Positions 33,028-33,343 of a DNA stretch of 64,000 nucleotides are shown one piece after another. The stretch's first letter is position 1, and the number at the start of each line of letters is the position of its first letter. The DNA is taken from assembly GCF_056712565.1 (NCBI RefSeq), contig NZ_CM160072.1; one strand, written 5' to 3'. The position numbers and the translations under genes are program-made. The notes below the pieces were generated by a model. It did not search any database. It was not told where the DNA came from and saw nothing but the letters and a program-made list of their open reading frames with translations.

Positions 33028-33343
33028 ATGCAATTTACGGTATACCGCAGTCGCGGCAGGAACGCCGCGTTTCCCTTTGTTATTGATGTTACCAGCGACA
33101 TTGTTGGTGAGATTAATCGCCGTATCGTTATTCCATTAACACCTATTTGAACGATTTAGCCGTATTCGCCCACCAGAACGGCTTAACCCAATCCTTTTAC
33201 CGGTAGACGGCAAAGAATATGTGCTCATGACGCATGAGACTGCAACTGTTCCAGTTAACGCGCTGGGAACGAAATTTTGCGATGCCAGCGCGCACCGAAC
33301 GTTGATTAAAGGAGCATTAGATTTTATGCTCGACGGGATTTAA
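33028..33343 (+). pseudogene. ccdB: ccdB-like gyrase-poison toxin gene interrupted by a +1 frameshift
   Basis: Frame 0 encodes MQFTVYRSRGRNAAFPFVIDVTSDIVGEINRRIVIPLTPI then stops at 33148-33150; CcdB-like sequence continues in the +1 frame ([64 protein letters not shown], stop 33341-33343). Confidence 0.7.

Follow-up and report, generated by a model that had tools for sequence, protein, structure and literature searches.

The ccd islet between folA and apaH

The window analysed here, a stretch of 64,000 nucleotides, belongs to the E. coli chromosome and carries kefC, folA, apaH, apaG, rsmA and their neighbours. Judged by its sequence and position, the locus under study is a chromosomal type II toxin-antitoxin islet of the ccdO157 type, inserted in E. 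coli between two core genes, folA and apaH. The ccdO157 system was reportedly described by Wilbaux et al. in 2007. The islet measures 630 bp and comprises two plus-strand genes, ccdA followed by ccdB; its left core-gene boundary is folA, encoding dihydrofolate reductase (32227-32706, plus strand), and its right boundary is apaH (33340-34188, minus strand), both taken from the list of open reading frames and from the RefSeq annotation of the identical ATCC 11775 sequence. The genes ccdB and apaH converge and share 4 nt (33340-33343), which belong to the stop codon of the former and to the 3' end of the latter, so that the islet abuts apaH without a spacer. An islet was found at the same site in 2021 of 5426 complete E. 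coli genomes. Over 701 bp the DNA is 98.3% identical to the genes of O157:H7, where the islet also lies at the folA/apaH site; the CcdA proteins are identical and CcdB, once its frame is repaired, is 96% identical, whereas the ccdB gene of the window differs from that of O157:H7 by a +1 T frameshift and by the substitutions I26V and L58P. Papers citing Mine et al. 2009 place ccdO157 at this insertion site and, in their summaries, describe the folA-apaH region as plastic, holding a REP sequence, a ccd system or defective versions of it.

The intergenic sequence between folA and ccdA (32707-32791, plus strand), read directly, is the presumed promoter/operator of the ccd genes. Palindromes of the GTATAC type occur in it, and an AGGAG ribosome-binding site lies 8 nt ahead of the ccdA ATG; four positions of the region vary among 12 B2 haplotypes. 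A scan for consensus sigma-70 sites upstream of ccdA found none, and the ccd promoter is placed there only presumptively. The antitoxin gene ccdA (32792-33025, plus strand) is intact and encodes 77 amino acids that match the Pfam CcdA family (PF07362, E 1.5e-26). Its product is WP_000125566.1, the same protein that stands beside an intact ccdB in O157:H7, Nissle 1917, 8178, GN02350, 1105 and STEC299, and at the DNA level a single synonymous base separates the gene from its O157:H7 copy; ccdA is also identical in the divergent strain GF131. As in a ccdAB operon, ccdA lies on the same strand directly upstream of ccdB, with 2 nt between its end and the ATG of ccdB at 33028.

The toxin gene ccdB occupies 33028-33343 (plus strand), 316 bp instead of the 315 bp of intact alleles, and is flagged as 'frameshifted' by PGAP. 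From the ATG at 33028, frame 0 reads MQFTVYRSRGRNAAFPFVIDVTSDIVGEINRRIVIPLTPI and stops at a TGA (33148-33150, plus strand) within cctatttga, exactly where the preliminary description had placed the end of the CcdB-like frame. According to the list of open reading frames and the translation, the resulting 40-residue N-terminal fragment and its stop (33028-33150, plus strand) form the only open reading frame translatable from the ccdB start; residues 1-38 match positions 1-37 of the CcdB profile (E 1.5e-6). The similarity then resumes in the +1 frame, as had been proposed: the 3' part of the gene (33149-33343, plus strand; 64 codons and TAA) translates into a product matching profile positions 50-101 (E 9.6e-7), and supplies the C-terminal helix and the terminal ...MLDGI, neither of which can be reached from the start codon. 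When the two parts are joined, the repaired translation of 104 amino acids covers positions 1-101 of the 101 in Pfam CcdB (PF01845, E 1.4e-31) and aligns end to end with the Vibrio fischeri structure 2kmt (E 1e-16). Members of the CcdB family have one uninterrupted frame of about 101-105 codons; here the frame is broken after codon 40, and the gene is therefore a pseudogene of the family and presumably not a functional member. A terminator-like hairpin considered in the 5' end of ccdB (33052-33069) was rejected, as its folding does not surpass that of shuffled sequence (z = -0.12).

Alignment of the DNA with intact alleles, at first those of strain 8178, GN02350 and O157:H7 and later also those of Nissle 1917, 1105, STEC299 and others, reduced the break to one extra T that changes ATTGAA into ATTTGAA, with no other length difference. 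The TT of the intact alleles is thereby TTT (33146-33148, plus strand), and the insertion itself creates the premature TGA, as sequence and translation agree. Comparison with other strains has thus borne out that a single T explains the break and that a one-nucleotide insertion has made the toxin a pseudogene beside a retained antitoxin; the T run stood as the site of the lesion, while the word homopolymer used for it was too strong for a run of no more than 2 to 3 T. Alignment with WP_001160966.1, the commonest B2 allele, showed two further changes, both on the plus strand: A>G at 33103, giving I26V (the 61-bp stretch with G is exact in 145 genomes), and T>C at 33201, which in the repaired frame gives L58P (its 61-bp stretch is exact in 135 genomes).

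With the F-plasmid CcdA/CcdB pair, whose toxin is a gyrase poison (PDB 1vub, 1x75), the locus shares the fold family and the operon order. Residues 1-104 of the repaired protein align to residues 1-101 of F CcdB (1vub, E 3.5e-10), and this protein too ends in ...GI. The two differ in that identity is only about 36%, in agreement with the PDB alignment, in that the window protein scores below the cut-offs of the F-type equivalog of NCBIfam (60 vs 147 bits), and in that F ccd is carried on a plasmid whereas the window locus is chromosomal. Moreover, a D replaces W99, a residue cited as crucial for gyrase poisoning by F CcdB (PMC7232551).

Elsewhere in the window, a 1.9-kb islet between araC and yabI (52840-54780) holds two AT-rich ORFs of unknown function, one of 283 aa (53349-54200) and one of 140 aa with a hydrophobic N-terminus (54207-54629), neither of which gave an NCBIfam, PADLOC or significant Pfam match; in ATCC 11775 this region additionally contains an IS630 transposase remnant. 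The djlA-rluA spacer is another small plastic intergenic site, with only a naRNA4/REP-type element in the window (41176-41268), and with espY1, which encodes a T3SS effector, and the remnant of a transposase in GF131 (L020:18360-19328). Rfam matches above the gathering score were SgrS (60800-61026), a TPP riboswitch (58944-59043, minus strand), STnc490 (15789-15912), ES003 (11211-11263) and naRNA4 (41176-41268, minus strand), none of them unusual in this region of the E. coli chromosome.

Distribution and haplotypes of the extra T

We screened complete E. coli genomes with a 61-bp probe that has the T run at its centre: it matched exactly in 133 of 5426 genomes, obtained in many laboratories and on many platforms, and 1491 carried the stretch with one T fewer. 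At least 60 genomes, among them some of different sequencing eras, are 100% identical to the window over 701 bp. They include four independent UTI89 records, APEC O1, S88, IHE3034, NU14, UM146 and the type strain ATCC 11775, as well as a strain named ST95-32 and several O1/O2/O18:K1:H7 isolates. These genomes represent the ST95 group within phylogroup B2. Over its first 25 kb the window either equals genomes of this lineage or differs from them by one mismatch, and in the NCBI (PGAP) annotation of ATCC 11775 the gene appears as 'CcdB family protein, frameshifted'.

Among complete genomes, the insertion and L58P occur in all four combinations on the V26 background, namely without insertion and with L58 (6 genomes; intact protein WP_021513468.1), without insertion and with P58 (5 genomes), with the extra T and L58 (exactly three genomes, A3, A26 and H22, labelled 'frameshifted' by PGAP) and with the extra T and P58 (about 130 genomes). 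This is a violation of the four-gamete condition over 55 bp (33146-33201) and therefore calls for one of four events: that the T was inserted twice independently, that one change reverted, that T>C arose repeatedly, or that a short tract recombined. These four scenarios cost an equal number of events and the local SNPs are mosaic; we consider recombination the most likely of the four. An attempt to derive a single order of the three mutations from the haplotype counts failed, given all four combinations and the mosaic of local SNPs. In 20 kb of flanking sequence, about 142 SNPs separate the unrelated genomes A3, A26 and H22 from the window, as many as in any other B2 pair. Possibly the TT/TTT site is a recurrent, perhaps reversible mutational switch, which would be a less exotic explanation than the leaky frameshifting considered below. 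Repair of the frame gives the window a CcdB identical to WP_001160969.1, a protein annotated as intact, which carries I26V and L58P without the extra T and is encoded by five genomes whose flanks are diverse (1105, A37, Q5, MS 16-3 and N1420); all five of these intact P58 alleles carry a synonymous G>A at 33271 that is absent from the window.

Variation was compared in a small sample of 12 B2 haplotypes with 10-kb flanks. Not one of the 234 sites of ccdA varied, with no change of any kind, against 77 of 4392 sites (17.5 per kb) in the flanking core genes (window 30173-35396; Fisher p about 0.03-0.04 against ccdA). Six of the 316 sites of ccdB were variable, corresponding to four missense changes, one synonymous change and one indel. 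In these small samples, the contrast between the two genes appears to fit the published view that the chromosomal toxin is unconstrained and the antitoxin is kept.

Alternative accounts of the frameshift

The preliminary description had allowed for a homopolymer sequencing error; with a sequencing or assembly error at the T run, the real gene would be intact. Single-base indels at homopolymers are a common artefact, and one of the comparison genomes, Q5, probably has an artefactual frameshift in pdxA; the run in question, however, is only three T long, the insertion goes together with one particular haplotype (I26V, L58P), and the same extra T recurs in the 133 complete genomes, obtained by many groups on many platforms. 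Together with the identity across the lineage and the NCBI flag, this recurrence excludes a sequencing error, to which we attach practically no probability; compared across genomes, the extra T presents itself as a real mutation, fixed in a lineage and already annotated. A more serious rival accepts the mutation and reverses its importance: the toxin could have been weakened or inactivated earlier by L58P and/or I26V, with the T inserted later in a gene already neutral. The intact reading frame of the V26/P58 allele in five genomes, whose protein equals the repaired protein of the window, speaks for this, and so does the position of residue 58, which aligns inside the strand PVVHIG of F CcdB, where a proline would likely be destabilising; in addition, four of the five ccdB substitutions among the 12 B2 haplotypes are non-synonymous, vs none of any kind in ccdA. 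On the other hand, the extra T also occurs with L58 in A3, A26 and H22, so that the insertion does not need P58, and the five intact P58 alleles carry 33271 G>A whereas the window does not, which makes them cousins and not direct ancestors. We consider such a secondary role of the frameshift possible though doubtful, and even if right it leaves the verdict on ccdB as a pseudogene unchanged.

Programmed or leaky +1 ribosomal frameshifting would instead keep the gene alive: a ribosome that carries peptidyl-tRNA-Ile on AUU while UGA occupies the A site would slip one base to UUU and continue with GAA. Rescue is confined to 11 nt (33140-33150), between a TAA of the +1 frame (33137-33139) and the TGA of frame 0, and this segment contains a prfB-like XUU UGA N; slippage at AUU UGA A would restore the wild-type peptide ...TPIERF... 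exactly. The site shares with the +1 site of prfB (RF2), CUU UGA C, the XUU codon, the in-frame UGA and the continuation in the +1 frame. Unlike prfB, it has no Shine-Dalgarno-like stimulator, since the 20 nt upstream, ccgtatcgttattccattaacacct, contain neither GG nor AGG, while the prfB-type model needs at least 4 pairs to the anti-SD sequence (PMC2790909). Furthermore, although AUU UGA A is present and its A site is favourable, re-pairing of tRNA-Ile from AUU to UUU in the P site is expected to be imperfect, with a mismatch at the first position. The shift site is also not conserved among orthologues, the gene being in a single frame in 1491 genomes vs 133 with the insertion; unlike true recoding sites it is derived, from a recent insertion, and the +1 frame downstream carries L58P. 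We find it very improbable that rare +1 slippage at AUU-UGA-A (33145-33151) rebuilds full-length CcdB with P58, and then at a very low level. If it did, the locus would have changed from a lethal addiction module to a strongly attenuated, stop-codon-gated toxin checked by a conserved CcdA. Internal restart at GTG 33221 is likewise improbable on the sequence as it stands: the 40-aa ORF that it opens has no evident ribosome-binding site and would yield a C-terminal CcdB fragment without most of the fold. Two other mechanisms were discarded, transcriptional slippage, for which by general knowledge a run of 3 T is far too short, and phase variation, for which the run is again too short and of which no TT/TTT mixture was seen in the lineage, the best 60 matches being all identical.

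Truncation of the toxin and decay of the ccdO157 system

The reading that we prefer, and regard as very probably correct, is that the extra T of a B2 lineage truncates ccdB, leaving a dead toxin and ccdA as an intact orphan. One T has been inserted, presumably by replication slippage, into the TT of ccdB codons 40/41 (ATT GAA to ATT TGA A) in the lineage of this strain, the B2 extraintestinal pathogenic group of UTI89, APEC O1, S88, IHE3034 and ATCC 11775. Translation from the ccdB start therefore ends after 40 residues, and the remaining 64 codons, in the +1 frame, stay untranslated. A 40-residue fragment should be unable to form the CcdB dimer, and with 64 of 104 residues lost, including the C-terminal helix and the terminus, the toxin is predicted to be dead. 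In F-plasmid CcdB, the C-terminal helix and the terminal residues are needed for gyrase poisoning. With an inactive toxin, the locus can presumably no longer kill or 'addict' the cell. The repressor of F-plasmid ccd is the CcdA-CcdB complex, and by analogy the orphan ccdA may therefore be less well autoregulated. Chromosomal CcdA-O157 reportedly does not neutralise F-plasmid CcdB (PMC7354431), and an anti-addiction role of the orphan ccdA against F-type ccd is therefore unlikely. Survival of ccdA may reflect only that too little time has passed, toxin-first loss being the safe order of decay; within the lineage the ccdB pseudogene has not decayed further, which is uninformative for a young clone.

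The same gene is also disrupted in another way. Strain 2009C-3133 (L005:329-630; about window 33210-33222) carries a second, independent ccdB lesion, a 13-bp deletion, likewise annotated as 'frameshifted', and its CcdA carries T47I. This deletion is estimated to occur in roughly 200-270 complete genomes: of 302 high-coverage matches, 9 evenly spaced rows were sampled and 7 of these carried it. Between them, the extra T and the 13-bp deletion are present in about a sixth to a fifth of islet carriers, which is of the same order of magnitude as published: the summaries in PMC3879964 and PMC7280312, which differ slightly (21% vs about 30%), put at about 21-30% the share of ccdO157 variants that combine an inactive toxin with an active antitoxin. 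The window copy belongs to this class of decayed variants, 'active antitoxin, inactive toxin', as those summaries define it. After Mine et al. 2009, they see decay as beginning with inactivation of the toxin, a step that is not lethal. The preliminary description had pointed to a known decay route of chromosomal toxin-antitoxin systems, and this holds for the very system at hand, since decay of ccdO157 within E. coli was published by Mine et al. 2009 (Genetics 181:1557), as related by citing papers. In a 2009 review (PMC2654758, Table 2), UTI89 was scored without a CcdB homologue and CFT073, 536 and O157:H7 with one; the negative score is what a frameshifted, unannotated gene would produce.

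The extra T in ccdB is thus an ordinary, already known case of toxin-first toxin-antitoxin decay. Beyond the preliminary description, our analysis adds the missense changes I26V and L58P, the presence of the frameshift on two haplotype backgrounds and the earlier publication of decay in the same system. The finding matters little beyond correct annotation, and RefSeq already flags ccdB. The extra T with L58P can serve as a lineage marker for the UTI89 / APEC O1 / S88 / ATCC 11775 group, about 130 of 5426 complete genomes. Moreover, the alleles I26/L58, V26/L58 and V26/P58 in intact form, and V26/L58 and V26/P58 with the extra T, make up a natural allelic series for CcdB-O157 toxicity and for the orphan CcdA.
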